This document shows, one piece after another, positions 5,143 through 62,693 of a stretch of DNA of 64,000 nucleotides. The first letter of the stretch is position 1, and every line of letters begins with the position of its first letter. Position numbers and translations under genes: made by a program. Source of the DNA: Candidatus Babeliales bacterium (lineage in GTDB: Bacteria > Babelota > Babeliae > Babelales > JBFXEV01); the NCBI GenBank assembly GCA_050179755.1, contig JBFXEV010000001.1, forward strand, positions 873,994-937,993, given 5' to 3'. The notes below the pieces were generated by a model, which saw only the letters and a program-made list of their open reading frames with translations, did not search any database and was not told the origin of the DNA.

Positions 5143-6141
5143 CTATTCTTCTTCAATATTCGATGATGCATCTATTCCATCTAAACGATCAGTAATCATT
5201 TGATCTTGTTCATCTTGTTGTTCTGTGGTCTGCAGCGCGAGAAACAAAGAAATCCAACAACTTGCACCATTAAGTGCGGTGGTGATCGTTGGAATGTATC
5301 CTTGCCCATTATACATAAAATAATCTTTAACTAAATTAAGGCCAAATAATACACTTAATGCAGTATACATTTGTGTCTTTGCGTCAAGCGACCCATCTTC
5401 TAAAATGAGTCTTATATCAGAAGCTTGTTGTTCTTGCTCAGCAGTGAGCGTTTGCGGCGCATGCCGTTGTGTAGATGAATATCGCGTATAAGTTGGATGC
5501 GATCTATGTTCAGCAGTAAGCAATTCGGTGGTCCCTGCGCGTGGATGATCGAGCTCTCCAAGCAGTTGGATCAGCATATCTTCAAGTTCTTGTGTTCGTT
5601 TTTGAAATTGGTAAGATAAAGCCAATGCGCCCAATGGTAATAAAAAATCTACTGCTAGATTGGTGATGGTAATTGGATCTATATGGAACATTAGATCACG
5701 GTTAGCAGCAGTTAAGAAAGCACTTTTTATAAAGTTACAACTTAGCAGTACGCCAATTGTTTGACTCATTTGTGATATTGTGTGTGCTTTTCCCAGGGAG
5801 CCTATTAAATTGATGCGTTCATCACGGTGTTCTTGTGCAAGCAATAAATCTGCAATGTGAGAACGTGCAGGTACTTGAAATGCGCTATCTTCAGGAGGGG
5901 CGGAAGGCGTTACTAATGAAACCACTGTATGATGATCTTGGAATGGTAGTACTACAGGTTCAGATGCTCCGGTAGCATAGTGAGATAATTCGTTTAATGC
6001 TCCTTGTGTAGGCAAACCAGCTTGGATTACTGGTGGTTGCTGCCACATACAATATGTATATGATGCTGGCACTAGCATAAATATGATTTGTACGAGTACT
6101 AACAAATAATTACTTGTACGAAATCGTCTTATTTCTTTCAT
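5143..6141 (-). CDS. Hypothetical secreted/membrane protein with two hydrophobic hairpins
   Basis: ORF track 5143..6171; ATG at 6141 has AGGAG RBS; repeats similar to 6155..7405. Confidence 0.65.
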   Translation of the reverse strand: MKEIRRFRTSNYLLVLVQIIFMLVPASYTYCMWQQPPVIQAGLPTQGALNELSHYATGASEPVVLPFQDHHTVVSLVTPSAPPEDSAFQVPARSHIADLLLAQEHRDERINLIGSLGKAHTISQMSQTIGVLLSCNFIKSAFLTAANRDLMFHIDPITITNLAVDFLLPLGALALSYQFQKRTQELEDMLIQLLGELDHPRAGTTELLTAEHRSHPTYTRYSSTQRHAPQTLTAEQEQQASDIRLILEDGSLDAKTQMYTALSVLFGLNLVKDYFMYNGQGYIPTITTALNGASCWISLFLALQTTEQQDEQDQMITDRLDGIDASSNIEEE

Positions 6142-6154
6142 GTAATTTCTCCTT

Positions 6155-7405
6155 TTATTTCTCATGTGCAATAACTTGGCGGAGTTCGTGTAAGCGTTGT
6201 GTGAGTGATTTGTTAGCTTTAGTGGAAGACCTGCAGGATCTAAAACTCAACCATCCAAATGTAAGAATGCCTGCAGTGTTTGCAAGAATGCTGCAAATTG
6301 AAGTATAGCCAAAGGCATTAGTAGTTTTTTGTTCACTCACGCAATCAACGCCACATACGGTGATGCACGGTGGCTGTATACAATCTGGTGTTCCGCAACA
6401 GCCTGCATGCCAGCATACTTGCTTGCATGGTATTATTGGTAGTGATTGATTGTGTTCAGGTAAGGGTGTGCTTGGATAGAACGTATCTTGCCCCCATAAA
6501 AGTGCGCCTATTAAATCCTTTGTTAAATTTGCTCCAAAAAGTGCTGCAAGACCTGCATATAGTTTCCATTTGGCATCTGCCGAACCAGTTGATTTAATAA
6601 GCGCTATAAGATCATTACGTTGGGTGTTAATGCTATCTTGATCAGCACGTTCCATATCATGTGCAATGTGTTTATCAAGTACATCACGAATAGCGTTATC
6701 AGAATTAGAAGGTATACTTTGAAGTTGAGGTAAACCTTCTGTTGCATCATGGAGCTTTTGTAGTAATGTCTTAAGTTTTTCTTCAGAGTTTTGGCCTTTG
6801 GTGTATGTACATGCGGCATATAAAAGACCCAATACGCAAACAAGACCATTAGCAGATAAGCTTACAAGTGCAGTAGCGCCAAGCGCATTTAATGATTGAT
6901 TATTTGCCGAGCAATCCCACGGCCCATCACAATCTATCGTGCAATCTGGCGATGCAGGAACACAATATGCGCGGCAAATACGATAACAAGGATGCAAATT
7001 CATTAAGTGATTTGGTGGAATTAAATCAGTCATTGGGTATTGTGGTACTGTTCCCCAGAGGTATAAGGCAGCGGTACTTACGCCAGCATTCAGCGCACCA
7101 AAAAGGCTTGCCAATAATGCCAATTTTGTGCGTGCGTTATTGCGGCCTATTGACTGAATAAGCGCCAGATTTTTTTTACCATTTTCTCCCTCAAAAAGTG
7201 GTTCTGCGTCCGGATTCCGTGCTTCTAAAATGCTTACAAGGCGCTGCGCGGGTGGGAAAAGAAGCATTTGTTGATACAGCGGCGCTATCTCTCTTGAGCC
7301 GGTATTTGATTCAGCAAGTTGCACTCTTTTAGTAATTGGGCAGTCCATGCACTGTGCAATCATCATTACGTTCAAGCCAACGCATACATACAAAGCAAAT
7401 TTCAT
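6155..7405 (-). CDS. Hypothetical membrane protein, internally duplicated TM-hairpin with Cys-rich loops
   Basis: Two repeats (LIQSIG..LFG..LWG..Cys-rich..NALG / LIKSTG..LFG..LWG..Cys-rich..NAFG). Confidence 0.7.
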   Translation of the reverse strand: MKFALYVCVGLNVMMIAQCMDCPITKRVQLAESNTGSREIAPLYQQMLLFPPAQRLVSILEARNPDAEPLFEGENGKKNLALIQSIGRNNARTKLALLASLFGALNAGVSTAALYLWGTVPQYPMTDLIPPNHLMNLHPCYRICRAYCVPASPDCTIDCDGPWDCSANNQSLNALGATALVSLSANGLVCVLGLLYAACTYTKGQNSEEKLKTLLQKLHDATEGLPQLQSIPSNSDNAIRDVLDKHIAHDMERADQDSINTQRNDLIALIKSTGSADAKWKLYAGLAALFGANLTKDLIGALLWGQDTFYPSTPLPEHNQSLPIIPCKQVCWHAGCCGTPDCIQPPCITVCGVDCVSEQKTTNAFGYTSICSILANTAGILTFGWLSFRSCRSSTKANKSLTQRLHELRQVIAHEK

Positions 7406-7515
7406 GGTGTCCTTTTTAGTCGCTCTTAAGAGTAGGTTTGATAGTATGAGAATACTTTTTTGTGCAGCATGCTGTCAACAGCTTACTGCTTTTATATTTT
7501 CATAAAGTTATGCCA

Positions 7516-7980
7516 TTATTCAACTTTTGCTTTTCTGCAGCAAGCGCGTAGCAGATGCCAACTTGTTTTGCCAGTGGCATAGAGCAGCATGGCTCCATCA
7601 ACTGCAAGTTCACTGTAATCAAATGAGTGTGGCACACTTTGTGCATACACGGTGGTATACACATCGTAGGCAGTTTTAAGACCTATAAGTAAGGTGGCTG
7701 TAGCCGGAACGGCAGCATTTTTTAAATCCCAGCGGCGATTAAGTCTGACAACCGCTTGTGCGTGGCGTAACTTTTCGGTTCTTATATCATCATCAGCTTT
7801 TTGTATTTTTGCTTGTAACTCAGCAACTTGTCTATCATGTTCTGTGCGATCGATCATTTGCACTGCGCTGCTTGATGAATCGCTGTTCGTGCTATCCATG
7901 CAAAGTGTGGTAGTGCAAGGAACTAAAAGTAATAAAGTGAGGGATAATATTTTCATTTTTTGTAGTTTCCTTGTAGCCAT
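7516..7980 (-). CDS. Hypothetical secreted protein, coiled coil plus hydrophobic hairpin
   Basis: Signal peptide TTTLC|MDS; C-terminal RACCRK. Confidence 0.65.
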   Translation of the reverse strand: MATRKLQKMKILSLTLLLLVPCTTTLCMDSTNSDSSSSAVQMIDRTEHDRQVAELQAKIQKADDDIRTEKLRHAQAVVRLNRRWDLKNAAVPATATLLIGLKTAYDVYTTVYAQSVPHSFDYSELAVDGAMLLYATGKTSWHLLRACCRKAKVE

Positions 7981-7985
7981 ATAAA

Positions 7986-8498
7986 TTAATGTTCATCAGT
8001 GTTACTATCGTGCATAATTTGAGTCACGGCATAACTTTCATACGAAATTGTTCCTAAGAAGTTATTATAAAAAGGGATTAAAGACCAATACGACCAATTT
8101 GCTCCTTGTTCGGCCAAAATCTGATCTTTTATTGCGTGCGCCATAAGGCATACAAAATAAAAACTGCCTGCAATTGAGCTCACTGTTATATTTGAACGTC
8201 TATGTTCTTCTTTACGGAATCGCTTATGCCAATTAAGTTCTGCATGAAATTTGCGTGGTAGTACATCAAGTTCTTGTTCTTTTGCCTCAAGTATTTCTTG
8301 TAACCTCTTTAGTTCTAAAGAATTTTCTTGTTTGTTAGCGCTTGCTTGTGGCTGAGGAAACAAATCATGCGATAGTAACCGCAGTTCTTCTTTTAATGAA
8401 TGTGGTTGTCCGCTCTGTGCTGCAGATATTGCAAGTTTATCCATAGTATAAATAGATAGAGGCACACTCAGAAATAAAAGAGCAGGTAATTTTGTCAT
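7986..8498 (-). CDS. Hypothetical secreted protein, paralogue of 8516..9088
   Basis: ORF track 7986..8516, likely start MTKLP; shares SNITVS/SNATVS and LDVLPRK/LKNLPKD. Confidence 0.6.
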   Translation of the reverse strand: MTKLPALLFLSVPLSIYTMDKLAISAAQSGQPHSLKEELRLLSHDLFPQPQASANKQENSLELKRLQEILEAKEQELDVLPRKFHAELNWHKRFRKEEHRRSNITVSSIAGSFYFVCLMAHAIKDQILAEQGANWSYWSLIPFYNNFLGTISYESYAVTQIMHDSNTDEH

Positions 8499-8515
8499 AG
8501 CGTTCTTTCTACACA

Positions 8516-9088
8516 TTAGGTAACTTCATAGGTATTGCTTCTGCAGAAACATTGTGACATGCTATAACCCATGGATGCTATCCAGCCAATAATATTATAG
8601 GTAACGCCAATTGCAGATTTATTCCAACCACCATTTTCGGCTATTCGCGGATCACCACCAGCTTGTAATATCATACCGATACAAAATGCGCCAGAAGTAA
8701 TACCACTCACCGTTGCATTAGATTTAATATTTTCAAATGTGCGATCAGCTTTAAGTATTCTTAATGTTCCATCAAGATCTTTGGGAAGGTTTTTAAGGCT
8801 TCGCTTTTTTTCTTCTAGTGTTTTACGTAATTTGCCAAGCGTTTCTTCACTTTCATCTTTACTGATAAAAAGTTGCCCATATGGTGTGGGTGCAACAGGC
8901 ATAAGGGCCTGACCATCTTTTTCAAAAAAATCTTGCGCGAGCAAACTTGCTTGTTCACCTGTTTTTAAGTCATGTGAACTTGATGCAACATCAAGTAAAG
9001 GGTACAGTCTTGCATTGTTTTGCTGCATGCTGTGAATAGGCATTGTTATGCTACAACAAATACATATGATGGCAAGTAATTTTTTCAT
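8516..9088 (-). CDS. Hypothetical secreted protein, coiled coil plus hydrophobic hairpin
   Basis: MKKLLAIICICCSITMPIHS|MQQ signal peptide. Confidence 0.65.
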   Translation of the reverse strand: MKKLLAIICICCSITMPIHSMQQNNARLYPLLDVASSSHDLKTGEQASLLAQDFFEKDGQALMPVAPTPYGQLFISKDESEETLGKLRKTLEEKKRSLKNLPKDLDGTLRILKADRTFENIKSNATVSGITSGAFCIGMILQAGGDPRIAENGGWNKSAIGVTYNIIGWIASMGYSMSQCFCRSNTYEVT

Positions 9089-9211
9089 ACAAAAGTCCTT
9101 GGAAATTGGTGTTGCAGGGTTATATCAATTACTCTTAACATAACATGTGGCATAAAAGCGTCAATATAAAAACGCATGGCACTAACATCGTATTTCTCTA
9201 TAGTTTTTGTT

Positions 9212-9862: not shown

Positions 9863-9864
9863 GA

Positions 9865-10752: not shown

Positions 10753-11747
10753 GATGCAGCCTTAATAATAACATTTGCATCTTGTGCTAGCGCGCCAAGA
10801 TGTTCATCTGTTAACGCAAGCCCCTGTGCACGTTGAGTACTTTTATTAATGAGCATTTTATAGTTGCTTATTGGGGTTATCGCCACATCACGTGCTAACG
10901 TATAATCATCAAGAATAGTAAGCGCTTTGCGCGCACCTTCCTTGCCATGATCATATTCTTGTACGCCAAACGCAAGTGCTGCACCTTTTTCTCCCGAATT
11001 TAAATCAGAAGCATAAAGCGTTACGCCATATTGATTGCACAATTTAATAAGTGCGTCCACTCCTGAAACAAGAGTGTGGTCAGTATAAATAAGTACCGTA
11101 TCAACGTTGCTCAGCATTGGTTCTACTTTCTGTACAATCTCGTTTGTTGCAAACACTTCTGCCGTTGTGAGCACTATCTCTTTTGCACTTGCTGCACGTT
11201 CAAGTTCTTTGCGCACTTTTTCCATACCGCTGCCATGAGTAGGGTCGTATACAAATAAAATGTTCCTTGCCGTTGGCTTTACCTTATGTAGATAATCAAG
11301 CTGTGCATCAAAGTTATCAGTTATATACACGCCGGTAGCTTGATCGCCTTGTGCGCGTGATTCTGCGGTTACGCCAATTATTGCTGGGTTATCAATAGCA
11401 GAAAAAACAAGAGGTAGGTTTTGTTTGTTTTTTTGCAGTAACGTGTGCATAGTGTGTGAGCATAGTGTACCAACGGTAAACACAAGGTCATATTGAAGAT
11501 GTGCTATTTCTTCTGCTTGCGCTTTAAGGAGTGTTTTGTTGCCGCCAGCGTTAAACGTATCAAACGTATACGTTTGCTTGCCATGCGCCATAGTTTCTTT
11601 AAAGCCACGTTCAATTTCATCGATTGCTGGATGTAGTGCAGGCAATAAGATGGCAATACGGACTCCATTATTTTTTGGAACGAAAAAATATATGGTTCCG
11701 GTAGCTAAAATACTTAATGCTGTTAATGCTATAATCAGTTTATTCAT
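10749..11747 (-). CDS. ABC transporter substrate-binding protein (ABC_sub_bind, Trp/Tyr-type)
   Basis: HPAIDEI..GF, NAGGN, PLVFSAI.NP, GAALAFGV..Y..G motifs. Confidence 0.8.
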   Translation of the reverse strand: MNKLIIALTALSILATGTIYFFVPKNNGVRIAILLPALHPAIDEIERGFKETMAHGKQTYTFDTFNAGGNKTLLKAQAEEIAHLQYDLVFTVGTLCSHTMHTLLQKNKQNLPLVFSAIDNPAIIGVTAESRAQGDQATGVYITDNFDAQLDYLHKVKPTARNILFVYDPTHGSGMEKVRKELERAASAKEIVLTTAEVFATNEIVQKVEPMLSNVDTVLIYTDHTLVSGVDALIKLCNQYGVTLYASDLNSGEKGAALAFGVQEYDHGKEGARKALTILDDYTLARDVAITPISNYKMLINKSTQRAQGLALTDEHLGALAQDANVIIKAAS

Positions 11748-12234
11748 AGTTTTCCTTTAATTGAGTTTGTCTGCCTTCGCTTTGTTCATAAGCGGCGGCG
11801 AGTGTTGATACTGTTTTAGTTTTATCAAGTGCTAATACCAATTGGCTTACTATCGTGCGCGCTTCATGATGCTGCAGTAATTGTGCAAGAAGCATTTCTT
11901 GCTTTGTTGGTGCGCGTGATGTTATTGGCAGTGCGCCATGCCATTCGCAATATTTATACTGCTCCGGGTTTAGCGTTTTAAATTCCATTAACGGAGTCCA
12001 CCCAGCGCCAATTCTTTTTAAGAATGTAGCGTTTGCTGGCATAAAACGAATTTGACTCGGTGCAATTGTGATAATGCTTGGGCTTTTTTCGTTTGCGTTA
12101 TCATAAAATGATGCATGCTCCTGTGTGGCATTATGTAAGAAAAAACCAAAGCTACTGTTTGATTGTTCTTGCATTGCATGTACAGCAATATACAACGTTG
12201 TGCTCATTGCTAAAAGTAGCATATGCATACGCAT
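11740..12234 (-). CDS. Hypothetical secreted protein, first gene of the ABC operon
   Basis: ORF track 11740..12267; likely start MRMHMLLLAMSTTLYIAVHA|MQE. Confidence 0.6.
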   Translation of the reverse strand: MRMHMLLLAMSTTLYIAVHAMQEQSNSSFGFFLHNATQEHASFYDNANEKSPSIITIAPSQIRFMPANATFLKRIGAGWTPLMEFKTLNPEQYKYCEWHGALPITSRAPTKQEMLLAQLLQHHEARTIVSQLVLALDKTKTVSTLAAAYEQSEGRQTQLKENYE

Positions 12235-12570: not shown

Positions 12571-13458
12571 TTGGCTTTATACTTTCAAAAAACATTAGAG
12601 AGACTTGTGCAAGATGTCTATGATATAAAGAGCGGCAAAGTAACCAGATGGGATCTTGTGCAGCGTGATTTAGGGCAACTAAAAGCACAATGGGGTCAAT
12701 CAAATGCAAGAGCATATACACTTCTTAAGTATGCTTACTCTAATTTAAATAAAGAAGCCGCACTGTATGGAGTAGAAAAAATTACTGAAGTTGGCACAGA
12801 GATGTTTTTAACCAATCAAGCAATCAGTGGTTTTGGTCACTTGATTGGCAATGGCGCGCGCGCTTTAGATGATATAATACAAGCTGGTAATGGTATTGAT
12901 AAATTTAATAACTTGCCATTGAATGGCCAAACGCTGCAAGCCTTTATTGGCTATGAAGCTGTTCTTGCAGAAGGACGAGCTGCAGTAGCTCAAGCAATAG
13001 GTGTTGCAGGAGCTGTCGCGGAAGAAACGCTTGATGGCGCTTCAAAAGTGCTTCCGGCAGTTTTTGCAATGAATAATGGTGGCCCAGGCGGTAATGATCC
13101 AAAGAATCTAGTTAGTGCGGGAAAGATTCAGAAATATTTGAAACATCCATATCAAGCTAAATACAAAGTCAACATAAAAAGCGTTGAAAGAATAGCTAAG
13201 AAGGTTGCGAGACTTGATTTCAATAAACGACGACATATACTTCAAGTAAAGCATGCTTGGGATAGATTAGTTGTTGATCCCAATGATTGGGATGCTGTAG
13301 CTAGAATAATCACAAAAGTGATGAAAGAAGGTAGAGTGGAAAAGAAATTTAATCATTTTATAAAATATGCGGAAATTTTTGGAGAGAGAGTTGAAGTTCA
13401 GTATATTGTAAAGCATAATAAAACGATGATAAGTGACGCATGGATAAGAACGATATAA
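12571..13458 (+). CDS. Polymorphic toxin C-terminal portion, predicted RNase (Ntox35-like); N-terminus apparently lost
   Basis: Gly-rich linker NNGGPGG then basic domain HILQVKHAW...ISDAWI; TTG start just after an in-frame TAG. Confidence 0.6.
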   Translation: MALYFQKTLERLVQDVYDIKSGKVTRWDLVQRDLGQLKAQWGQSNARAYTLLKYAYSNLNKEAALYGVEKITEVGTEMFLTNQAISGFGHLIGNGARALDDIIQAGNGIDKFNNLPLNGQTLQAFIGYEAVLAEGRAAVAQAIGVAGAVAEETLDGASKVLPAVFAMNNGGPGGNDPKNLVSAGKIQKYLKHPYQAKYKVNIKSVERIAKKVARLDFNKRRHILQVKHAWDRLVVDPNDWDAVARIITKVMKEGRVEKKFNHFIKYAEIFGERVEVQYIVKHNKTMISDAWIRTI

Positions 13459-13898
13459 GAGAATTTAAGAATTCTTTATTGCAAGGTGATTTTGATAAGG
13501 CTAAGTTATATATAAAAGATCTCGATAATGAAAAAATTTATGATTTAATTGTAGAAATAAATTTTAATGATGAATCAATGGTAAGTTATTGCTTTTTGGC
13601 TAGTTTATTGCATGATAATGAAACAGCGGAGCTGCATATCAATGCTGCAAGTTTTTTAACATTTTTTCTATTTCATATACAAGGGGCATATAATTCGGCT
13701 TTATATCATTTGCGTCAGGCTATTAAATTAGATCCAGATAATATTGAATATCAAGAGCTCCTATTGCATTTTAATGAAATACCGGATCGTTTAGTTAGTC
13801 AGGACGAGGCAATAGCAGTTGCCAAAAATATTCTAAAAGATAAATCAGATAGCTCTGTAGCTTTGAGAATATTAAGTGACTATAAAATAAATAATTAA
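13440..13898 (+). CDS. Putative cognate immunity protein (TPR-like)
   Basis: Overlaps the toxin 3' end; acidic; ALYHLRQAIKLDPDN TPR-like motif. Confidence 0.65.
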   Translation: MDKNDIREFKNSLLQGDFDKAKLYIKDLDNEKIYDLIVEINFNDESMVSYCFLASLLHDNETAELHINAASFLTFFLFHIQGAYNSALYHLRQAIKLDPDNIEYQELLLHFNEIPDRLVSQDEAIAVAKNILKDKSDSSVALRILSDYKINN

Positions 13899-13917
13899 TT
13901 AAAACAGTTATAATTCC

Positions 13918-14352
13918 ATGAACGAAGTTATTAAAGAATTAATTTTAAGAGGCTCGTTTGAAGAAGCAAATTACTTACTAATTTCATTTGGAGAACAGGA
14001 AATAGAAAGCTTTTTAGTAAATTTAGCATGTGAGTCTCAAAGTATAACGGCATATGGCTTTATAATTAATAATTTAATACAGCAGGAAACAATATATTGG
14101 CATAAAATGGCAGCAGTTTTGTTCTTAGCGCCTTTAAGTCGTGTTATAGGAGCTTATCCTTTAGGCCTTTATCATACAAGGAGAGCAATGGCGCTAGATT
14201 CTAATGATGTTGGTGCAAAGTCATTGTTGTTGTCTTATCATAATTCTCCTGCTCCTACAGTAACAAAAGAAGAGGCAATTGAAGTCGCAAAAGAAATTGT
14301 TATTACCCAATATAATGATGAATTTACTATCACTGATCGGTTAAACGCATAA
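13918..14352 (+). CDS. Immunity protein paralogue with a chimeric C-terminus
   Basis: GAYPLGLYHTRRAMALDS and EEAIEVAK align with 13440..13898. Confidence 0.6.
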   Translation: MNEVIKELILRGSFEEANYLLISFGEQEIESFLVNLACESQSITAYGFIINNLIQQETIYWHKMAAVLFLAPLSRVIGAYPLGLYHTRRAMALDSNDVGAKSLLLSYHNSPAPTVTKEEAIEVAKEIVITQYNDEFTITDRLNA

Positions 14353-14389
14353 ATGCTAATTTATTAAAGATGACCTGAATACTCATGAT

Positions 14390-14698
14390 CTTTTTTTTCT
14401 ATTTTATAAAGGAGGCGTATGGGTGAGCTTTATATCATTTGCGACGGGCTATTCAATTAGATCCGGAAAAGCCTACTCAAAATTATCTACTCATGCGTTT
14501 ATCTAGTATCGAAAAAAAGGATGGCTTTATTTTAATGGTTTAAAATTGGGCGATAAGGACACAGGTGCTCAATATAAAATATCTATTGAAAATTTTGTCA
14601 GTCTTCTTGAAAAATGGAAAAAATTAAATGAAGAGGGCGTGCGCGAAATTGTCATAAGACAAGAAGATAGTTCAGTAATTATCAGTGGTAATTATTAA
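14390..14698 (+). pseudogene. Fused remnants of two immunity-gene families
   Basis: AYG*ALYHLRRAIQLDPE (copy of 13698-13738), then frameshifted YKISIENFVSLLEKWKKLNEEGVREIVIRQ similar to 14699..15070. Confidence 0.65.
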
Positions 14699-15070
14699 AT
14701 GGCTATGCAACAATATATGACTTTTCTCCAAGAAAAACTGTTTCATTATAAATTAGATAAATATAGCGATGATACGATGTTTACTGTGTACATGTGCTTA
14801 ACTGATGGATTAGGAATGGAGTCTTACGTAAATTTTTTAGAAAATACTGAAAGAGTTAGATTAGGTGGTAATATTTGTAGTATAGTTAAATTAGGTAAGA
14901 TGGTTTCTTTGTCTATACATGAAGAAATAATACCTGATTTGCCTGTATTTAGCACGAGTATAGATAATTTGATCAAACTATATAAGGAAATTAAAAGATT
15001 AGAAGATCTTGGAGTTAATAAAATTAATATTTCCTTGGATAATGATGAGCTATTGATTCTTGGGGAATAA
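14699..15070 (+). CDS. Hypothetical protein, likely orphan immunity protein
   Basis: 123 aa, acidic, AT-rich; homologous to the upstream remnant. Confidence 0.55.
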   Translation: MAMQQYMTFLQEKLFHYKLDKYSDDTMFTVYMCLTDGLGMESYVNFLENTERVRLGGNICSIVKLGKMVSLSIHEEIIPDLPVFSTSIDNLIKLYKEIKRLEDLGVNKINISLDNDELLILGE

Positions 15071-23145: not shown

Positions 23146-23910
23146 ATGTACATGCGCGTGTTGTTTCTGGGATTGTGGTTAATGAGCAATGCGATAACTT
23201 GTGCAATGGAAGAAAATACTCTTGCTCTTTATAGAGGAACTCCTTTGCAACAAGCTCAAAGAAATATTGCTTCACAAAAGTTATGTACCGCTATTTCTCA
23301 AGCACGGTTTGATGACGTGGAAAAAATTATTTTAGATGATCCACTTATTGTAAGATATTCTCCAGACGCGTTATTTGTTTCAAGAGCGGTAGCAATTGCT
23401 GATTATGATCAACGGATATTAAGCCTTGTACTAAGAGCTGGTGGAAATCCAAATGAAGTTAACCCTAAAGATGGTAATACACCCGCGCATATTGCCGCTT
23501 GCCTATTACATAGCGAGGCATTATTGTGTTTGCATGCCAGAAATGCAGACTTAACTGCAAGAAATCATGCGGGCAAAGCACCAGCTGACCACATTCTTAA
23601 TGGTGGCAATATTAATGAGAAGAAGAGAGTTGAGATTGCAGACTGGTTTCGTAGACATGGAATACCTGTTAGGATTCACATGCGTGCACACGTGCCTTCA
23701 GACGCACAAGCGCAATATGAGCAGAGAATTCGCTTAATAGATGCGGCATTGACAGTTATGGGATCTACTGCCGATTCAGAACAACAGAATGCTATTTTGA
23801 GCTTGCTTACGAAACAAGGGATAAATATAGAAGAAATACAGCAGCGCACACAATTACCTATGAATAGAAAAAATCTACGTGGGCTTATAAGGCAGGTGAA
23901 CAAATATTAA
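23146..23910 (+). CDS. Secreted ankyrin-repeat protein
   Basis: GNTPAHIAA, GKAPAD ankyrin motifs; start re-called at MYMRVLFLG after a GAGGA RBS (ORF track 23080). Confidence 0.8.
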   Translation: MYMRVLFLGLWLMSNAITCAMEENTLALYRGTPLQQAQRNIASQKLCTAISQARFDDVEKIILDDPLIVRYSPDALFVSRAVAIADYDQRILSLVLRAGGNPNEVNPKDGNTPAHIAACLLHSEALLCLHARNADLTARNHAGKAPADHILNGGNINEKKRVEIADWFRRHGIPVRIHMRAHVPSDAQAQYEQRIRLIDAALTVMGSTADSEQQNAILSLLTKQGINIEEIQQRTQLPMNRKNLRGLIRQVNKY

Positions 23911-24559: not shown

Positions 24560-25335
24560 TTAATGCAGTGCAGCTTGGTGGCTACTTACTAAAAAACTCA
24601 CTTTATTTTTATATAGCATTGTTTACGCATCCTGCAATACAGATTATACAAGAATCTGATGTTCTCTATGTAACGTCATCAATACGTGATGAAACGTACA
24701 ACAATGTTTGGAAGACAAACTTTTCTGTTGAAACGCTCGATCAACGCATCAACGGTATTAAAAATATTTTTGGTGAACAACCATTCATTTGGTGGGTTGA
24801 TCCTTCTGATACACCTACTGATCTTACTAAATATCTTGAGCAGCATAAGTTCACCTTCGTGGAGCAAACAACAATTATGTATCATGCACAAAAGGAACTG
24901 TTGCCTTCTTGTACAGGCAATATTCAGGTGCGCAGGGTTTCGACTGCGCAGGAACTAGATGATTTTTGTACGGTTAAAGGAGGCACGCCAGAACAGATTG
25001 CGCTTAATAAGCAATTATTTGCTACATGTTGTGAGCAACAAAGATATCCGATTGAATTATTTGTCGCTTATCATGATCACGATCCGGTGTGTATTGCGGT
25101 TACCGTGCAACAAGATGGTATCGGCAGTATTCACTCTTTTGCTACCAAGCAAGAAGCACAAGGTAAAGGATACGGCACGCGTATGCTTAATTACGCGCTT
25201 GAGCGATTGTATAGCGCAGGATGCTCAATTGTTTTGCTTGATTCTAGAGCGCAAGCAATTAATTTTTATGAAAAAAATGGCTTTAAAGCAACCGAACTTA
25301 TTATTAAAGCGTATAGATCTCCATTATGCGCGTGA
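24556..25335 (+). CDS. GNAT family N-acetyltransferase
   Basis: QGKGYGT acetyl-CoA motif A; FYEKNGF. Confidence 0.88.
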   Translation: MINAVQLGGYLLKNSLYFYIALFTHPAIQIIQESDVLYVTSSIRDETYNNVWKTNFSVETLDQRINGIKNIFGEQPFIWWVDPSDTPTDLTKYLEQHKFTFVEQTTIMYHAQKELLPSCTGNIQVRRVSTAQELDDFCTVKGGTPEQIALNKQLFATCCEQQRYPIELFVAYHDHDPVCIAVTVQQDGIGSIHSFATKQEAQGKGYGTRMLNYALERLYSAGCSIVLLDSRAQAINFYEKNGFKATELIIKAYRSPLCA

Positions 25336-28300: not shown

Positions 28301-28671
28301 ATAAAAAATATCATGGCTTCATGTTTTTCCATTGGTTTAAAATGGCGCACTTGCCAGTAATAGGGCGCAAAATATTCTTCTTTAATGACGTCGCGGAATT
28401 TCTCTACACCGCCAGCCTCAAGCTGAATATATATTTTTGCTTTATCATCACTTGCAAATATGATCGCTTGGCGATGTTCTTGTGGCCCAATGTTATGAGC
28501 TGTGGTAATTTCTTGCGCTCTGGCAAGAGCAGATGATCTATCCATAGTAAGATCAATAGAGACTATGGGAAACGCTATCGGAAAGAGTTGAAACGCAGCA
28601 TAAGCCAAACTAAACGAGATTGCTGTTGCCAGTACCCAGAACCATGATTTATTAAAGATAGTTGCTTGCAT
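25324..28671 (-). CDS. Large CPBP/Abi (CAAX protease-like) intramembrane metalloprotease with duplicated architecture
   Basis: WEECLFR, FAGAH, AIISH motifs; two similar soluble-domain plus TM halves. Confidence 0.8.
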   Translation of the reverse strand: MQATIFNKSWFWVLATAISFSLAYAAFQLFPIAFPIVSIDLTMDRSSALARAQEITTAHNIGPQEHRQAIIFASDDKAKIYIQLEAGGVEKFRDVIKEEYFAPYYWQVRHFKPMEKHEAMIFFMPDGRPYGFRELLPDSMELPNLDKAQAEQLAQESASTNWFIDFSKHMLVEHSTEEKPNGRIDHTLVYERTDAKIADAPYRVTIRISGNKPTKTMVDLKIPESFERRYACMRSANNSIATWSSAAMFLLYILLGCILGLILLVRSNRHWLISRAPFYWALFIALGMALSMVNNYSLWWMYYQTTTSTLTFILSIVQSILMSFGSTFLMLYLSFMAAENLTRKAFPNQVQLWPSADPEVASSWQIVGRTIGGYLMVGFDFIFVTLFYLLSFKYLGWWSPADTLIDPNVLASYAPWFSSVITALRAGFWEECLFRAVPLASAMLLAKRFGKKYLWLGGAMILQAIIFAGAHASYPAQPAYARLVELIIPSFVFGGLYLAFGLIPAIISHVIYDLILMALPIFISDAPGSIVNKAIVILCGLVPLMVLLYARIVKGRFHTLSERWYNGLWQSPMQGAAAKEDPMHKEPIQPSLYRLPILFIGLLGLTTWGLLRHKAQDVKPLSITREQAVERAHQSAQEFNLTIPKELSVLSNVGGKLTKDNLFVWRTKGKEIYNELDGKFIMAPHWKVRSAEFDAPDIAKSAEEYDIYVGHDGSVVEYQHVLPKEQEGATLTQDQARAMTHEVLKTRYNVTPDDVVEVSAREEKQPNRKDWEFIYRLKQGPDLGEGQLRIRITLGGDQITSHDRVLHIPETWERAYEFETKLEQLVKNGSLILLVALMMLLAGLIIRRRPIHPFAVRFALITVLLLVLKTCIQLWNLWPVLTIDFATSAPYLRQVGMLIAMTFIQTVGITVFLGWLAGYTIGLLKGRCSKSLVQTLLQGISIALLISGATAFASWALPQRKPLWLDISNAGAYLPWLSMGLRTATTMIASTLISLFILHGLNMLSDYGRKNYGYLTLVCILLGIAFAGFEPSSSLLVWLLVGWGIGMILFAVYYVALRFNYCIVPILIATHLSIDAVQDALLNAYPGIWLGTLLTIVLCCALAAFFIQALRPSRA

Positions 28672-28812: not shown

Positions 28813-29379
28813 TTAGTCAGCGTTCAAGTTCATGCCGTCAAGAACCATTGCAATGAGTTCTTCGTTTTCTTCATCATCTGGGCTAGAATTTTCAGGAACT
28901 GCAGGAGCTACAGGCGCTGCAAGTACCAAGGGCGCTCGTAAAGCCTCTGCCCACTGAGTGAGTTGATTAAACGAGCGTTTTTGTTTTATCAGATGAGTAG
29001 GAATCGCGCTTTTACAACGTGCAAGAGCAACAAAGTAGACAGGAGGTAAAAAGCCATCTTCTTCATACGCTTGTCTGTATTCTTGGTAAAACTGCTGATA
29101 AAGCGCCTTGTAATGATTTATGGCTGCTTGATGTGTCTGCTTTTCATCGAGAGCTTCAGCGCAAGCAGTAAGTTCTACCCCAATAGGTTTTGGTAAAGAA
29201 TTATGCTTATTTTCATTTTTTCTTGAATTTCGTTTAGACTTTGTTGCTCGTTCAATCTGTTCTTTTTTTGGTGCACGGCGATCGGTAAGATCCCGCGAAT
29301 TGCTGCGTTTCATAGCATTTATTTGAAAGCAAACAGTAATAATGGCACTAAGAGTTATGAGTAAGTTTTTGTTTTTCAT
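28813..29379 (-). CDS. Secreted hypothetical protein (basic N-region, acidic tail)
   Basis: Signal peptide FQINA|MKR; paralogue of 29389..29763. Confidence 0.65.
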   Translation of the reverse strand: MKNKNLLITLSAIITVCFQINAMKRSNSRDLTDRRAPKKEQIERATKSKRNSRKNENKHNSLPKPIGVELTACAEALDEKQTHQAAINHYKALYQQFYQEYRQAYEEDGFLPPVYFVALARCKSAIPTHLIKQKRSFNQLTQWAEALRAPLVLAAPVAPAVPENSSPDDEENEELIAMVLDGMNLNAD

Positions 29380-29388: not shown

Positions 29389-29763
29389 CTATAACGATAC
29401 TTCGTCAAAAATTTCATCGGTGCTGAGAGACTCATTCGTTTTTGGTTTGTTTTGAGGCGCTTTCAGCATTTTAGTGACAATTTTTAAATTACCAAATTTA
29501 CCTTTAAGGCGTAGTTGATCTTGCGGCACTTGGTTGTAATACTTTTCAAGTTCCTGATAAAAATAGCCTGGTAAGTAAGCACGGCATTGTTGTGCCGCTC
29601 GGTACTGTGAATTAAGAAGATAAAACGCTTCTTGTAGCTGATTTTCTTGTGCAGGAGACCAAGTAAGCTGAGTTGTTTGTTTTGGTGCTTTTTCCATAGC
29701 CATTGATTCCGCTGATAAGGCAGTGAAAGCTAAAAATAATAGAATACGTGATATATGTTTCAT
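29389..29763 (-). CDS. Secreted hypothetical protein
   Basis: AGGAG RBS; signal peptide AESMA|MEK. Confidence 0.65.
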   Translation of the reverse strand: MKHISRILLFLAFTALSAESMAMEKAPKQTTQLTWSPAQENQLQEAFYLLNSQYRAAQQCRAYLPGYFYQELEKYYNQVPQDQLRLKGKFGNLKIVTKMLKAPQNKPKTNESLSTDEIFDEVSL

Positions 29764-55244: not shown

Positions 55245-55249
55245 AGTTG

Positions 55250-56449: not shown

Positions 56450-57673
56450 TTATTGTTTTTTCTTTTCTTCTTCTGTTAGTTTTCTAGTAGGTTGTGCCAA
56501 ACATTCGGCTTCATCATTAATTTTTGCTTGTAATAATAGTGGGCGTTCTTTTATAATTGACCTATAGTCAGAGTCAACTTTTAAAAATGCATCTTCTTCT
56601 ACTGGATTACTTTTTTCATTTATTTCATCCAGTGAGTAATTCAAGCCTGCTTGATCTGCACATGTTTTTGTAATGCGATCTATAGTTGCTTCGCGTGCTA
56701 TAGTAGTAGCTTTAAAGTATATTTTAGTAAGAATTTCTTCTAAATGTTGCGTATGATATATTGTTTTTAGTCGATTGCAACCGTCATCTAAAATTCTTCT
56801 TGCCAGATTAAGAACTTGATCTGTATCATCAAATTGTTTTCCTCTCAAGTTTGCAATTAAAGGCTGGGTTATTTCAGTAATAAAGTTACAAACTTCAGTT
56901 TGCTGCTGGTGGCCCTGTACTGTCCGCATAAGAAGCATAAGTTCCTGATGTAACGTTTGAAAAAAGATTGAGCCAAATACATATTTTTCTTTTGGAATTG
57001 AGCCTAAATCCTCGGGGCAATACATAGTTTGCATGGCTGCTACCCATCCAACTTCTTGTATCTTTTGGTATGCTTCTTTACGTACTTCTAAGATTTTTTT
57101 TGCTTGTTCACACCAATGTTCTGAATATCTAGTTTTTTCTTTACTTATTGCATTTGCTTGGTTATCTACTAACTCTAAAACCCTAAGACCATTGGTTGCA
57201 CCAAGGCGCTCTTGAGCTCTTTCACGCGTTTGTGCTGCCCAATAACCTGCTGATAATAAAGTAATCTGTTGGCATTGTTCATCACCAACACCGGGGTAAC
57301 AATAAGGTTTTAAAAAACTTAAAACACAGCATGCGGCAGCTGCTGCACCAGTCCAAGGCGCCCATGTTCTCCAATATACTGTGTTTAATTTTGCAGAAAT
57401 GTCGTCAAACTCATGAGCTAGATTATCAGAGGCCATTGCGATGCGTGATGGGCGCATGGCTGCCATTAATTGGGTGATTTCTTGTGTTTGACTAATGGCA
57501 TTGCCATACGCTGTTAATCTTTCTCGAGATACAGGTGTTTTTTCTTGAACTGCTACACAGATAACTTTTCTTATTGTGTTTTGTGGCGGAGATTGTGCTC
57601 CTTTAGGCTCCATTGCCGGTGCCGTAGTAGATGCAAGCATGACTATAGTAAATAAACCAAGATGTCTATTCAT
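56450..57673 (-). CDS. Secreted hypothetical protein
   Basis: ORF track 56450..57739; likely start MNRHLGL...TTAPA|MEP. Confidence 0.65.
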   Translation of the reverse strand: MNRHLGLFTIVMLASTTAPAMEPKGAQSPPQNTIRKVICVAVQEKTPVSRERLTAYGNAISQTQEITQLMAAMRPSRIAMASDNLAHEFDDISAKLNTVYWRTWAPWTGAAAAACCVLSFLKPYCYPGVGDEQCQQITLLSAGYWAAQTRERAQERLGATNGLRVLELVDNQANAISKEKTRYSEHWCEQAKKILEVRKEAYQKIQEVGWVAAMQTMYCPEDLGSIPKEKYVFGSIFFQTLHQELMLLMRTVQGHQQQTEVCNFITEITQPLIANLRGKQFDDTDQVLNLARRILDDGCNRLKTIYHTQHLEEILTKIYFKATTIAREATIDRITKTCADQAGLNYSLDEINEKSNPVEEDAFLKVDSDYRSIIKERPLLLQAKINDEAECLAQPTRKLTEEEKKKQ

Positions 57674-57745: not shown

Positions 57746-58363
57746 TTACTTAGTCTTTTTTTCTAACTCTTGTGCAGATAGGTGTGCTTGATTGCGCAAA
57801 TTAGTAAGGAGAGTGCGAGCGGTATATGTTTTTTGGGTAATTTTGGTGATTCCACGCATTGCTCTTATTGATTTGCAGCATTGCACGCACGTTATGAGTG
57901 CGAGTGCACAACTTGTGCTGCAGGGTGCGCAGCAATTTTCACCACGTTGTGCAGCGTTGTGTGCCCGTGCGGCAAAATACGCACTAAAAATGCCAAACTT
58001 GCAGGGTTTTACGATTGCTAAACCGCAAGACGTAATGTGGTTACAAATACGGCTATTAGTTTCACCTACCATGTAATCTAATAATTCAGTATGTTCTTGA
58101 GGGCTGCTGCAAATTAGTTGATATAATGAGTTTGAAGTGAATTTGCGCTCATAAATTGCCATTTCTTCTTGCGTATGCAACCACGAGCAATCTTTGCCTG
58201 CCTCTTGTGCATATTCATGCATTTGAATCCGTGCCGGTGGCATCTCCTCTAAGAGTGCATCTGCATTATCATAAACCATGCTTACTCGAGGTGGGTAATT
58301 AGGATCCATTCCAAAGAGTAATGATGAACTTAATAAAGTTACGCTTAAAAGTCTATGATGCAT
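57746..58363 (-). CDS. Secreted hypothetical protein, Cys-rich hydrophobic C-half
   Basis: Signal peptide SLLFG|MDP; CCAPCSTSC..CVQCC. Confidence 0.65.
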   Translation of the reverse strand: MHHRLLSVTLLSSSLLFGMDPNYPPRVSMVYDNADALLEEMPPARIQMHEYAQEAGKDCSWLHTQEEMAIYERKFTSNSLYQLICSSPQEHTELLDYMVGETNSRICNHITSCGLAIVKPCKFGIFSAYFAARAHNAAQRGENCCAPCSTSCALALITCVQCCKSIRAMRGITKITQKTYTARTLLTNLRNQAHLSAQELEKKTK

Positions 58364-58442: not shown

Positions 58443-59534
<1,092 letters not shown>

Positions 59535-59563
59535 GATACTGATTTTTTGGCAGAATATTTAAT

Positions 59564-60295
59564 CTATTTTTTACTGGCCTGATATGCTTTATAAAACGCA
59601 ACAAGTGGTTGCCATTCTTCTCTACCTTCAAGTAAATTTATTGGTGTTTGACCCTCAGTAGTTCTTGCCTCAAGGCAAGCTCCTGCATCAAGTAGCATGT
59701 GTGCTATTGCAATGGTTTTTTCTTCATCAAAACGTGCTTGTGCAAGAACATGAAGTGAGGAACAATTTTGAGTGTCATTTACTTTAACATGAGCGCCATG
59801 CTCTAATAATAATGCTACTTTTTCAGGAGAACACCAAGCAATGGCGCGATGAAGCGGCATATCTTCACCGGGTAAACCATTAACTTGCGCGCCTTGTTCA
59901 AGCAAAGCAGTCATTTTTTCTTTTGTGCCTCTATGGTCAGCAGCTTTAACTAATTTTCTGGTGAGTCGAGCTTGCAAAATACAGCCAACAGGTGTAACGC
60001 CGCTTTTGTTTAGAGTGGCTTCAGGTGCACCATTTTCTAATAATAAACCGATTATTTTATTATTAAGTTGCCTTTGGGTGAATGCAACATGTAATGCCGT
60101 ATCGCCTGTTTCAGGTAGAGTTGCTCTAACATCAACACCTGCTGTAAGTAATTGACTGACTTGATGATAATTGTTTTGGCGAATAGCAAGGCACAGGTCT
60201 TGGAGGGTTGTTTTTTTTTGTGATGCTTTTTCTGTATCCATTGCTTGTAATGTTAGGGTAGAAGCAAGAAGTGCGATACGTATTATTTTTTGCAT
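59564..60295 (-). CDS. Secreted ankyrin-repeat protein
   Basis: GDTALHVA, GVTPV, PLHRAI, GQTPI; start re-called at MQKIIRIALL (ORF track 60421). Confidence 0.88.
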   Translation of the reverse strand: MQKIIRIALLASTLTLQAMDTEKASQKKTTLQDLCLAIRQNNYHQVSQLLTAGVDVRATLPETGDTALHVAFTQRQLNNKIIGLLLENGAPEATLNKSGVTPVGCILQARLTRKLVKAADHRGTKEKMTALLEQGAQVNGLPGEDMPLHRAIAWCSPEKVALLLEHGAHVKVNDTQNCSSLHVLAQARFDEEKTIAIAHMLLDAGACLEARTTEGQTPINLLEGREEWQPLVAFYKAYQASKK

Positions 60296-60380
60296 GGTGA
60301 TCCTTAAGTGTCTTGAAAAGAGAATCTTAGGATCAAGATAACAGATATAGGATTTGCTGCAAGAAGTGCTTATTGCGTGT

Positions 60381-61517
60381 CTAATGATGATCGTTGTCTG
60401 TATAATGCGTGCTTTTATCATTAATCACTTGGGCAAGTGTTTTACTTGATGTATGATTGGCAACATATACATGATGGGCAATTATTGCTTGGCCAAGTTC
60501 AGGGTTATTGGGGTGGTACGAAGCATGATTAAAAACGGGTGTGGCACGGTTCACAAAATTTTCTGATTGTATCACGACCAAGTCAACCGTTCTATTATCG
60601 GTTAAGCGCACTAAGCATTTTCTATGAAAGTTTCCCTTCATGTTTTTTTGGTTATTAGTTTTAGCAACGGTAATGTGTGCACCTGCTTGAGTCAATTCAC
60701 TTAATAATTGAGTACTTACTTTAGTTAAAAACTCCCAATCCACAATCATATGCACAGTGCCCCCTTGTTTGCAAAAAACAAGTAGTTTTGCATGCAATGT
60801 TGTATTACCGTAGCCCATAGTTCCAAGATACAAGGTGCCACCTTTTTCAGGGTTAATTTGCTGTGCAAGTGATTCGGTTAATTTATAAAGTGTAGTATCA
60901 TATACGGTGCTGCATTTTAACTCGGTAGGCGGCAATATATGTGCCCCATTAGCATCTTCTTGCATGCCTTCGACGTGTGATGCTAAATGTTGTTTATAAT
61001 ATTCATGGTTATCATGAGTAATTAAACCAATTTCAAAGTTTTGGCGCCGACATCTTTGCGCATTATTAGGGTTGTAAGAACCTTCATATATACTATAATG
61101 CCAAGTTTGTTCACCAGTCTTTTTATAAGCAATAAGCACTCGTTTGCCGTGTTGACTGCCACGTTTTAAGGTAATGTTTTTGCAATCTTTTAGTTCTCTA
61201 CAAACGTGTTGATTTTCATGGCGATCAGCGTCTAGGTGGAGCGATACGCTGCCTTGTTTTTTGCTCGCAATTGCTTTAATGAGATCAATTACTTTTTGAT
61301 TGGTAATAAATGCTAAATCAGCTGATAAGGTAACACACTCTGCTGTGTTCGCAGTTTGCAGTAGTGCATGTAATTTATCGCGAACATCAAGTGTGCGCAA
61401 TGCCAAGTATGGTTTAGATATTTGAGTTATTGTTGAATCCATAGCACAGGAAAAAGTGGAGAGTGATAGTAATGTAAAAAAGAATATAATTTTTAGTGGC
61501 TTCATTTCTTTTTTCAT
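60381..61517 (-). CDS. Secreted phospholipase D/nuclease-superfamily protein (variant HxK motifs)
   Basis: QHGKR...GSYN and FHRK...SEN. Confidence 0.7.
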   Translation of the reverse strand: MKKEMKPLKIIFFFTLLSLSTFSCAMDSTITQISKPYLALRTLDVRDKLHALLQTANTAECVTLSADLAFITNQKVIDLIKAIASKKQGSVSLHLDADRHENQHVCRELKDCKNITLKRGSQHGKRVLIAYKKTGEQTWHYSIYEGSYNPNNAQRCRRQNFEIGLITHDNHEYYKQHLASHVEGMQEDANGAHILPPTELKCSTVYDTTLYKLTESLAQQINPEKGGTLYLGTMGYGNTTLHAKLLVFCKQGGTVHMIVDWEFLTKVSTQLLSELTQAGAHITVAKTNNQKNMKGNFHRKCLVRLTDNRTVDLVVIQSENFVNRATPVFNHASYHPNNPELGQAIIAHHVYVANHTSSKTLAQVINDKSTHYTDNDHH

Positions 61518-61523
61518 AGCATG

Positions 61524-62693
61524 TTACTCATTGTTGCCCGAAAGTGCTATTTTTTTCTTGGAAGATTTTCTTTTAGGTAATTGCGCACCAGAATTTTTAA
61601 AGTCCTGATACGTAACACCTTGTAGTGCAAGTTTTGTGTGTTCAGCAATGATGGCGTTACCCATATCGGTTTGATTCGGATAATAGGTGCTTACATTAAA
61701 ATCATGTTCTGCGTGCTTTGTTGCATTGGCAGTTGAAACACACGTGAGAATCTTTCCTGCACGTACACGCACCAAATACTTTTGATGGAAGATGCCTAAC
61801 TTTTCAAGGAGCGTTTTGCCTTCTTTTACTTTAAATTGCCCAGTTGGCAGCACAATGTGTGCACCATGATGCGTAAGTTCGTCAAGTAACGGTATATTCT
61901 CTTGTGATGTTGCGTCAGTATCAAGGAGCATGTGCACTAAGACCTTTCGCTTTGCGGCTTCAACTAACGCGGCATGAAGTCCGGCATGGCCATAGTTCAT
62001 AGAAGCAAAATAAATAGAGTCGCCTGTGTTGGTGTTTGCAATACGTGGTGCAAGGCTTGCATGGAGATCATGCTCAGCATTATCAATAATTGTTTTCTTT
62101 GCTGGTGTAGCGTCTAAAGTTTCTAATTCGTGCTTTTTTGTGCGTTTGGTGCCTTGTTGATGTGATTTTACATGGGCGTTGTGCGCTGGAGAATCATTAT
62201 ATTCTATTACCATCATTTCTTTATTGCGCTGTGCGCTTTTAGATAAGTTATAGGAACCAGCAATCGTTCGGCGATGCCACACGGTTTCATCAGCTTGTTT
62301 ATATTGGATAGACAATCTTTTGGTATGTTGTGCACTTTTGATTACCGTTATACCGGCACTTTCTAGTTTTTGGATTGGCGTTTTATTATTGGCGTTGGAT
62401 TTATGCATATGCACAGAAACGTTGCCTGGGTGCTTTGTATGTATATCGATGAGTAAATCTATAATAGTGCTATCAGTAAGAATGAAAGCATCTACGTTCA
62501 CATGTGCCTCATCTGCGTTTAAGGCAGCAGCGAGTTCTGTGATAACGGTAGGTTGTATGTTTGGATTAAATAGTACGGTGTCTTTTTGCGGAGAGCGTGG
62601 ATCAACATCCATGCAATGCAGAGAAATACTGCAGCCAAAAGCTGCTATACCTATAAACAGGGAATATAAAGATATTCTCATTTTTTTTAACAT
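61524..62693 (-). CDS. Secreted phospholipase D/nuclease-superfamily protein, paralogue
   Basis: QHTKR...GSYN, FHQK...TAN; AAKRKVLVHMLLD. Confidence 0.75.
   Translation of the reverse strand: MLKKMRISLYSLFIGIAAFGCSISLHCMDVDPRSPQKDTVLFNPNIQPTVITELAAALNADEAHVNVDAFILTDSTIIDLLIDIHTKHPGNVSVHMHKSNANNKTPIQKLESAGITVIKSAQHTKRLSIQYKQADETVWHRRTIAGSYNLSKSAQRNKEMMVIEYNDSPAHNAHVKSHQQGTKRTKKHELETLDATPAKKTIIDNAEHDLHASLAPRIANTNTGDSIYFASMNYGHAGLHAALVEAAKRKVLVHMLLDTDATSQENIPLLDELTHHGAHIVLPTGQFKVKEGKTLLEKLGIFHQKYLVRVRAGKILTCVSTANATKHAEHDFNVSTYYPNQTDMGNAIIAEHTKLALQGVTYQDFKNSGAQLPKRKSSKKKIALSGNNE

Follow-up and report, generated by a model that had tools for sequence, protein, structure and literature searches.

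In a 64,000-nucleotide stretch from a protist-parasitic Candidatus Babeliales bacterium (the window hereafter; positions 873,994 to 937,993 of a single 1,525,295-base contig), a preliminary description had pointed to 15 genes whose products carry a Sec-type signal peptide followed directly by methionine. All 15 junctions are present in the named genes, and the signature, which had been called window-wide, extends across the whole genome (G000, 96% complete). Hundreds of exported proteins in Babeliales and in some protist-dwelling Alphaproteobacteria are predicted to carry Met-Asp, Met-Glu, Met-Gln, or Met-Asn directly behind the Sec signal. The explanation that we favor, and to which we give about an even chance, is that signal peptidase I leaves a Met-acidic, degron-free start that has been selected to survive N-terminal quality control in the host. 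Gene calls and cleavage models were custom-written, and every cleavage site reported below is a prediction.

Methionine at the predicted signal peptide junction

A strict signal shape was found in 636 of the 1,412 called genes. Whether cleavage is predicted directly before the Met, as the preliminary description supposed, was checked genome-wide, and such sites occurred far above chance in three tests that were either blind to the Met or based on shuffling. A rule-based predictor, which applies a fixed −3,−1 rule and never uses the +1 residue, placed Met at +1 in 144 of 515 proteins, against a background Met frequency of 1.8%. The main model, a cross-validated matrix built from upstream columns only and blind to +1, did so in 173 of 638 signal-shaped proteins, with a posterior mass of 157 where 26 was expected and with no other residue enriched. 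When the junction region was permuted within each protein, 200 runs gave a mean of 68 and a maximum of 88 Met sites versus the 223/638 observed. Extra rounds of expectation-maximization (EM) worsened the upstream-only model (Met sites in 173, 150, and 104 of 638 proteins), and the unrefined version was used; an EM model with downstream columns, which slid three residues and locked on M-D/E, was discarded. The Met class comprises about 200 to 250 proteins depending on the definition used (212 or 252), or about one-third of the signal-bearing proteins.

The features of these signals (a basic n-region, a hydrophobic h-region, small residues at −3 and −1, and a length of 15 to 30 residues, with a mean of 20) fit substrates of Sec and signal peptidase I. 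The −1 residue is A, S, G, C, T, or P in 255 of 319 Met sites, and the −3 residue is mainly L, A, V, I, T, or S; some signals end with Pro at −1, commonly in the ankyrin proteins of genome G041. Two Peptidase_S26 genes encode signal peptidase I in G000 (paralogues at L116:4176-5009 and L117:6717-7577), at least one is present in 147 of 151 genomes of the phylum, and 65/151 have two or more matches. The data did not support a second signal peptidase as the cause of the motif: among the 82 genomes with one peptidase, 19 reach 30 or more motif matches (p 0.17). Lipoprotein processing, with Cys at +1 and Met at +2, was also rejected: Cys precedes Met in only 28/319 sites, a lipobox-like motif occurs in 15/515 proteins, and the IAQC, TTLC, YTYC, and SLHC of the window are not lipoboxes.

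The worry had been raised that the Met is the true start codon and the segment upstream of it untranslated. A Shine-Dalgarno-like motif precedes the signal start in 186 of 255 cases but only 3 of the 255 inner Met codons, a lower rate than that at random internal ATGs (381/7260); judged by the lack of such a ribosome-binding site, the junction Met is not a bacterial start codon. We therefore give very little credence to the inner Met being either the true start or a second start that yields a cytoplasmic form. The junction Met codon is always ATG, the sequence allows initiation without a Shine-Dalgarno motif, and the gene caller picked the inner Met as the start in at least two ankyrin genes, but the 15 to 30 upstream codons are stop-free and encode classical signals, and Val or Leu followed by D/E is not in excess at +1. 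D or E stands at residue 2 of 66/662 signal-less genes and behind the junction Met of 126/252 proteins. The two ankyrin genes called from the junction Met (G000:C1 638058 and 1110090) have an intact in-frame signal upstream, and the same misplaced start is seen in one row of the Babela supplement. A Kozak-like DNA context was considered and rejected: among +2 codons, those for Gly, Ala, and Val are depleted and those for Gln and Lys are common; the 37 Ser codons still show a slight AGY excess.

Cargo, second residue, and secretion route

The junction Met is restricted to eukaryote-like and orphan cargo. By one Met-blind model, it stands at +1 in 59 of 78 ankyrin and WD40 proteins (49/66 ankyrin proteins with a signal and 10/12 WD40 proteins), compared with 2 of 25 envelope proteins (p 1.5e-9) and, among soluble enzymes fused to a signal, 3 of 42 (p 9e-14). 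The comparison with periplasmic controls that the preliminary description had proposed thus came out in favor of enrichment. The Pfam cargo scan covered 167 signal-shaped proteins from bases 1 to 400,000 and 133 of 155 from bases 400,001 to 760,000, and the ankyrin set consists of listed matches mapped to 82 genes, with 150 of 235 candidates scored in that search. The envelope control was hand-picked (Omp85, SurA, thioredoxins, adhesins, secretin, porin, M16, and others, with lipoproteins and membrane anchors excluded), and the enzyme control comprises normally soluble glycosyl-, methyl-, and acetyltransferases and others that bear a signal. A C-terminal aromatic outer membrane signature is depleted in the Met class (1/212 versus 15/346), and Met-class N termini are more disordered (0.61 versus 0.55); the Met and non-Met classes could not be told apart by CaaX, transmembrane, or Inc-like motifs.

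Two other gene groups bear on the cargo. Normally cytoplasmic enzymes with cleavable-looking signals and no Met include glutamine amidotransferase, HIT, nucleotidyl transferase, and thioredoxin reductase proteins, UDP-sugar dehydrogenases, and GNATs (L118:16017, L125:1024, L133:3600, L131:6209, L058:14624, and L059:4615). At G000:C1 1396462-1408234 lie 10 ankyrin genes that encode no signal peptide; in-frame stops lie upstream of most of them, and small open reading frames (ORFs) are interleaved. This cluster differs from the remaining ankyrin set, and its genes start with an M-Q/K/E similar to that of the junctions.

The residue behind the Met is equally constrained. Conditional on predicted cleavage, 149 of 212 Met-class proteins start with Met-D/E/N/Q (23% expected from the residues at +3 to +12), whereas small residues occupy +2 in 14 (43% expected), hydrophobic residues in 18 (19%), and basic residues in 31 (15%). 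In the 252-protein set, to which a mild polarity filter was applied, D is enriched 5.1-fold and E 3.5-fold, and the 319 unfiltered sites agree. Among non-Met proteins, 216 of 346 mature starts are predicted Arg/N-degrons. Degron termini comprise R/K/H/F/W/Y/L/I, D/E/N/Q/C, unacetylated G/A/S/T/C, and unacetylated Met ahead of a residue that is hydrophobic or basic, and methionine aminopeptidase (MetAP) removes Met before small residues only (PMC11735805). By these rules, Met-acidic would be the least exposed start for a folded imported protein.

The suggestion that cleavage regenerates a host-like terminus of the kind acetylated by NatB holds in part. The dipeptide set is identical to that of NatB substrates, but NatB works on host ribosomes (PMC11735805), whereas Met-class proteins are made by the bacterium. 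Acetylation on the host ribosome was discarded as an explanation, as Met-class genes carry bacterial ribosome-binding sites. Acetylation after import is doubtful because NatB is described as acting cotranslationally; for unacetylated NatB-type termini, the source reports no physical interaction with a ligase, and recognition by UBR1 or UBR4 is possible in flies and mice (PMC11735805). Degron avoidance without acetylation fits the +2 spectrum at least as well as acetylation does.

A type II secretion set is the only outer membrane route detected in G000. It comprises two secretins, GspC, and two GspF genes, and markers of type III, IV, and VI secretion and of TolC (FHIPEP, VirB4, VipB, and OEP) had no match in this genome. 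Type II secretion as the sole such system has also been published for the phylum (PMC4378268, PMC4776705). The uncharacterized two-step export route that had been envisaged is hence not wholly uncharacterized. Secretin presence does not track the motif, since all of five Met-poor genomes, and Caedibacter too, carry the same secretins. Exported M16, M3, C11, and S41 peptidases are also encoded in G000. B. massiliensis grows in a vacuole (PMC4378268), and C. destructans grows in the host cytoplasm.

Occurrence in the phylum, outgroups, and window

Where homologues could be compared, the Met persists behind changing signals. It is kept in 9 of 9 and 8 of 8 members of two WD40 families (the latter as five called and three judged by eye) with mostly unrelated signals, and in all five database homologues of the window PLD-like protein at 61524 (one of them the protein itself) behind diverged signals. 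Against such conservation, 76 of 258 paralogue pairs differ in Met class, many from false calls or mixed ankyrin families.

The survey of other Dependentiae genomes that had been called for used a DNA pattern calibrated on G000, where 37 of its 47 matches fell at known Met sites and a swapped control gave 3; across 151 genomes of the phylum, there were 3,419 matches versus 647 for the swapped control. The motif is strong (at least 12 per Mb; control maximum, 12.5) in 74/151 genomes, which as kin are not independent, namely, in families f1, f2, f3, f8, f9, and f18, and near background in families f4, f5, f7, f10, f12, and f15 to f17. Random 40- to 60-kb samples were too small for ranking families, and the ankyrin alignment was too variable to serve as a scanning query. 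Signal-bearing ankyrin proteins have a Met site in 16 of 25 cases in G090, in 0 of 6 in G150, and in 19 of 54 in G041, where about half of these are false by eye and most of the other proteins start with Ala. In the supplement on cultured B. massiliensis, a small residue followed by Met is visible by eye in 10 of 10 ankyrin rows (places 4 to 13 of 126; PMC4378268, supplement 9).

Some genomes (G027, G139, G142, G136, G135, G036, and G041) are rich in signal-Ala-[Ala/Asp/Glu] and poor in the Met junction, and a parallel Ala rule is possible in them; a spot check of Ala-rich G027, with few cases, gave 0 Met sites in 11 signal-shaped proteins. None of the 151 genomes reaches 20 matches per Mb for the Met pattern and the Ala pattern alike (50 do so for Met only and 13 for Ala only; p 0.004). 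Such alternation would be expected if a property of the residue, not Met itself, were selected. The predicted +1 residue is small or stabilizing in 44 of 74 non-Met ankyrin proteins versus 266 of 678 other proteins.

Outgroups were sampled at loci around a nucleotide-transporter motif (80 fetched of 122 matches, 79 analyzed; Bacteroidota symbionts such as Amoebophilus and Cardinium excluded). Met sites were found in 5/41 proteins in Chlamydiae (none with M-D/E), 1/17 in Rickettsiales, 1/14 in Gammaproteobacteria, 0/7 in Verrucomicrobia, 0/6 in Holosporales-type loci, 3/17 in further Alphaproteobacteria (all M-D/E), and 0/15 in the remaining loci. Of 43 outgroup ankyrin proteins, two had a signal, and none had a Met site. 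Whole-genome pattern densities were 5.1 per Mb in Chlamydiae, 2.2 in Rickettsiales, 2.8 in Gammaproteobacteria, and 6.3 in Verrucomicrobia, compared with 9.0 in the 27-genome order of genome G153. The nucleotide transporter of G000 (L061:1501-2838; G000:C1 1046377) belongs to a subfamily that has eukaryotic proteins (Capsaspora and a haptophyte) among its nearest distant relatives, not the classical chlamydial or rickettsial ones; its named homologues come from Dependentiae/Babeliales.

With a stricter pattern, which is less sensitive in GC-rich genomes, 190 of 201 genomes of the class of G153 had four or fewer matches (one unpublished genome counts in the denominator only), and the six densest (3.7 to 9 per Mb) were all 0.9 to 2.3 Mb in size. 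The length of a match was no guide to its being in frame (Caedibacter, 7/10; one chlamydial genome, 13/19), and true matches were judged by translation or by eye. Translation confirmed 7 signal-Met proteins in 6 of 10 regions of “Ca. Paracaedibacter symbiosus” and 11 in 8 of 10 regions of G178; these regions were chosen by the pattern, so the +2 residue is not independent there. Caedibacter varicaedens had 0/10 true matches by eye and 0/16 in a second count. Among 21 alphaproteobacterial cargoes, 8 match Sel1, TPR, LRR, or patatin and 13 have no match. The motif thus recurs in a second class, in small-genome and in some cases protist-dwelling Alphaproteobacteria with other cargo.

In the window itself (Table 1), 13 of the 15 junctions read M-D/E/Q, as originally counted, and Met is the top site of the upstream-only model in 11 of 14 scored genes, the exceptions being SIYT/MDK, ESMA/MEK, and TAPA/MEP. 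Seven other signal-shaped genes, starting at 262, 1819, 3265, 10749, 25324, 31962, and 62886, lack the junction Met. Less of the original account of the cargoes stands. They had been called unrelated, and four pairs share sequence: the PLD-like paralogues 60381/61524 (30% identical), 7986/8516 (31% identical), 22784/23146 (a shared signal), and 5143/6155 (a shared 31-residue patch). The ankyrin and PLD labels have Pfam support in two of the 15 proteins, and the Inc-like label is unsupported, as the 11 window proteins tested contain no long hydrophobic segment of that kind (the highest mean hydropathy over 38 residues was 0.96).

Table 1. Window genes with methionine at the predicted signal peptide junction (slash); P is the model probability of the site
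Position	Strand	Junction	Met codon start	P	Product and remarks
5143..6141	−	YTYC/MWQ	6048		Orphan, long signal; no Pfam or NCBIfam match
6155..7405	−	IAQC/MDC	7348	0.87	Orphan
7516..7956	−	TTLC/MDS	7899		Orphan
7986..8498	−	SIYT/MDK	8444	0.32	Orphan, paralogue of 8516; not top predicted site
8516..9088	−	PIHS/MQQ	9028	1.00	Orphan
11740..12234	−	AVHA/MQE	12174		Orphan; read from sequence, not model-scored
22784..23080	+	AVYA/MDK	22844	0.88	Orphan
23146..23910	+	ITCA/MEE	23206		Orphan, signal near-identical to that of 22784
28813..29379	−	QINA/MKR	29313	1.00	Orphan
29389..29763	−	ESMA/MEK	29703	0.32	Orphan; not top predicted site
56450..57673	−	TAPA/MEP	57613	0.09	Orphan; weakest prediction
57746..58363	−	LLFG/MDP	58309	0.97	Orphan
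59564..60295	−	TLQA/MDT	60241	1.00	Ankyrin-repeat protein (Pfam Ank_2 7e-13)
60381..61517	−	FSCA/MDS	61442		PLD-like paralogue of 61524 (BLASTP 30%, E 6e-41, Met aligns with Met)
61524..62693	−	SLHC/MDV	62612		PLD-like protein (Pfam PLDc_2 1e-11)

Elsewhere in the window, a low-GC segment (12571-15070) holds an ORF with a Pfam Ntox35 toxin tip (12571-13458), behind which come small ORFs, among them one TPR-like, with the look of immunity genes; none of these ORFs has a signal peptide. The signal-bearing protein at 25324-28671 has 1,115 residues and no Pfam or NCBIfam match.

Candidate roles and meaning of the motif

The Sec-secreted Listeria protein p60, reportedly described by Sijts in 1997 as a host N-end-rule substrate, is a precedent for a bacterial protein that meets the host N-degron system with an N terminus made by signal peptidase; it is a single substrate, whereas the signature here would be one of proteome-wide avoidance. 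The Plasmodium export element (PEXEL) has an acidic residue or Gln at +2. As would be the case here, PEXEL cleavage leaves a mature N terminus, which marks host-exported versus resident proteins of a vacuolar parasite (PMC10653839), but there the organism is a eukaryote and the machinery is plasmepsin V and the PTEX translocon, whereas here ordinary signal peptidase I is predicted and a role in export would rest on analogy. Membership in PEXEL was rejected: there is no RxL, Arg is not among the listed −3 residues of the 319 sites, and motif density does not track signal peptidase number. The Q-rule of Bacteroidetes is also a lineage-wide fixed +1 residue behind the signal peptidase I site, tied to the stability of exported proteins (PMC5837995, PMC10653852). 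The Met motif differs from it in having Met instead of Gln (Gln at +1, 34/638, is not enriched), in its +2 bias, in covering about one-third of substrates and not most, in being cargo-specific whereas the Q-rule is compartment-independent (PMC5837995), and in its uneven spread through the phylum and its recurrence in Alphaproteobacteria. The motif thus acts in the manner of the Q-rule and has a likeness to the PEXEL terminus but qualifies as neither. No dedicated N-terminus-modifying enzyme was identified, although no systematic search was made; signal-bearing GNATs are present, with no link shown.

The same organisms and cargo figure in published accounts of a Dependentiae Sec and type II secretome, with signals on 79 of 126 Babela ankyrin proteins, type II secretion as the only system, and signals on 44% of Chromulinavorax genes (PMC4378268, PMC4776705, PMC6561590). 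The junction motif is undescribed there, though visible in the Babela ankyrin rows cited above. The word methionine is absent from the relevant main texts, these three included; supplements may mention it, and the supplement parts covered give no cleavage sites. No published description of the motif was found in the literature searched, which did not extend to subscription journals.

Under the reading that we favor, Met-class proteins would be exported by Sec, signal peptidase I would cut directly before the Met to give a host-like start, type II secretion would carry the products across the outer membrane, and they would arrive in the host cytosol, where the Met-acidic terminus would protect them from N-terminal degradation; acetylation by host NatB may occur and would not be required. 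Support comes from the cargo split, from the persistence of Met behind diverging signals, from the frequent Ala starts of ankyrin proteins where Met is rare, from the recurrence on other cargo in a second class, and from the +2 pattern, which is what degron rules predict (PMC11735805). A number of observations weigh against it. Some host-directed-looking cargo lacks the Met, including a ubiquitin hydrolase (C/ARP) and 8 of 11 ankyrin proteins under 190 residues; GNATs, which need acetyl-CoA, are predicted to start with F, Q, or Y; and the envelope-type S41 protease and D-Ala-D-Ala carboxypeptidase possess it. Nuclear localization signals and F-box motifs are not in excess in the Met class relative to the non-Met class. 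Only 2 of about 13 signal-bearing macro-domain homologues, judged by eye, keep the Met, and several start with Leu, a primary degron. In the phylum, 77/151 genomes fall below 12 matches per Mb, and Met and Ala exclude each other only weakly (Spearman −0.05; related genomes are not independent, and the comparison had no swap control). B. massiliensis lives in a vacuole (PMC4378268), so type II secretion would not by itself deliver proteins to the cytosol. Ligases for G/A/S/T degrons have been described from animals and plants; if amoebae lack such ligases, some other cause must be sought for the use of Met-acidic in preference to Ala.

A possible but clearly less probable reading is that the Met-acidic terminus is an address that a bacterial receptor, for instance an adaptor of type II secretion or a translocon of the vacuole, reads to sort host-bound from resident proteins in the manner of PEXEL. 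It would account equally for the cargo split and for the more disordered N termini; no type III, IV, or VI or TolC marker was detected in G000 even though the host boundary may include a vacuole, and a mature N terminus that alone confers export has a precedent (PMC10653839). However, no candidate receptor was identified, G041 has paralogues that differ in Met versus Ala behind a conserved signal, Met-poor genomes and Caedibacter have the same secretins, and the motif shows no link to a second signal peptidase. MetAP does not act in the periplasm, and avoidance of small +2 residues matters only where that enzyme acts. Should such an address nevertheless exist, it would have evolved twice and would be a bacterial counterpart of PEXEL, within an effector route needing no type III, IV, or VI system; we regard this as a tentative proposal.

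Effects on the bacterial side seem unlikely. Met-acidic starts might aid cleavage by signal peptidase or resist periplasmic or vacuolar aminopeptidases, as pyroglutamate does under the Q-rule, a precedent for a stabilizing +1 residue (PMC10653852), and G000 encodes exported peptidases. Envelope proteins and signal-fused enzymes, however, share the same signal peptidase and periplasm without the Met, and the Q-rule is compartment-independent, which the Met motif is not (PMC5837995). The idea that the Met is a relic of gene birth, in which a signal cassette was fused before captured genes that retained their own start Met, is already largely refuted, and we hold it to be very improbable. It accounts for a Met exactly at the junction, neighbors such as 22784 and 23146 share signals, and the 10 signal-less ankyrin genes start similarly; but cytoplasmic-type enzymes that gained a signal kept no Met, D plus E at +2 far exceeds that at bacterial starts, the A/S/G of eukaryotic starts accounts for only 11/252, the Met persists while both flanks diverge, and two classes converge on the same +2 residues.

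In Dependentiae, nearly half of the genes encode exported proteins, most of them family-less. From sequence alone, the motif sets apart a third of this secretome as probably bound for the host and leaves the rest as envelope proteins, a split that opens the questions of where the proteins go, by what route, and with what N-terminal fate to direct tests in cultures of Babela massiliensis and “Ca. Paracaedibacter”. It also carries a warning for annotation, as gene callers can start at the inner Met and miss the signal. If the degron-avoidance reading is true, host protein quality control would have shaped bacterial signal peptide junctions proteome-wide, and would have done so twice.

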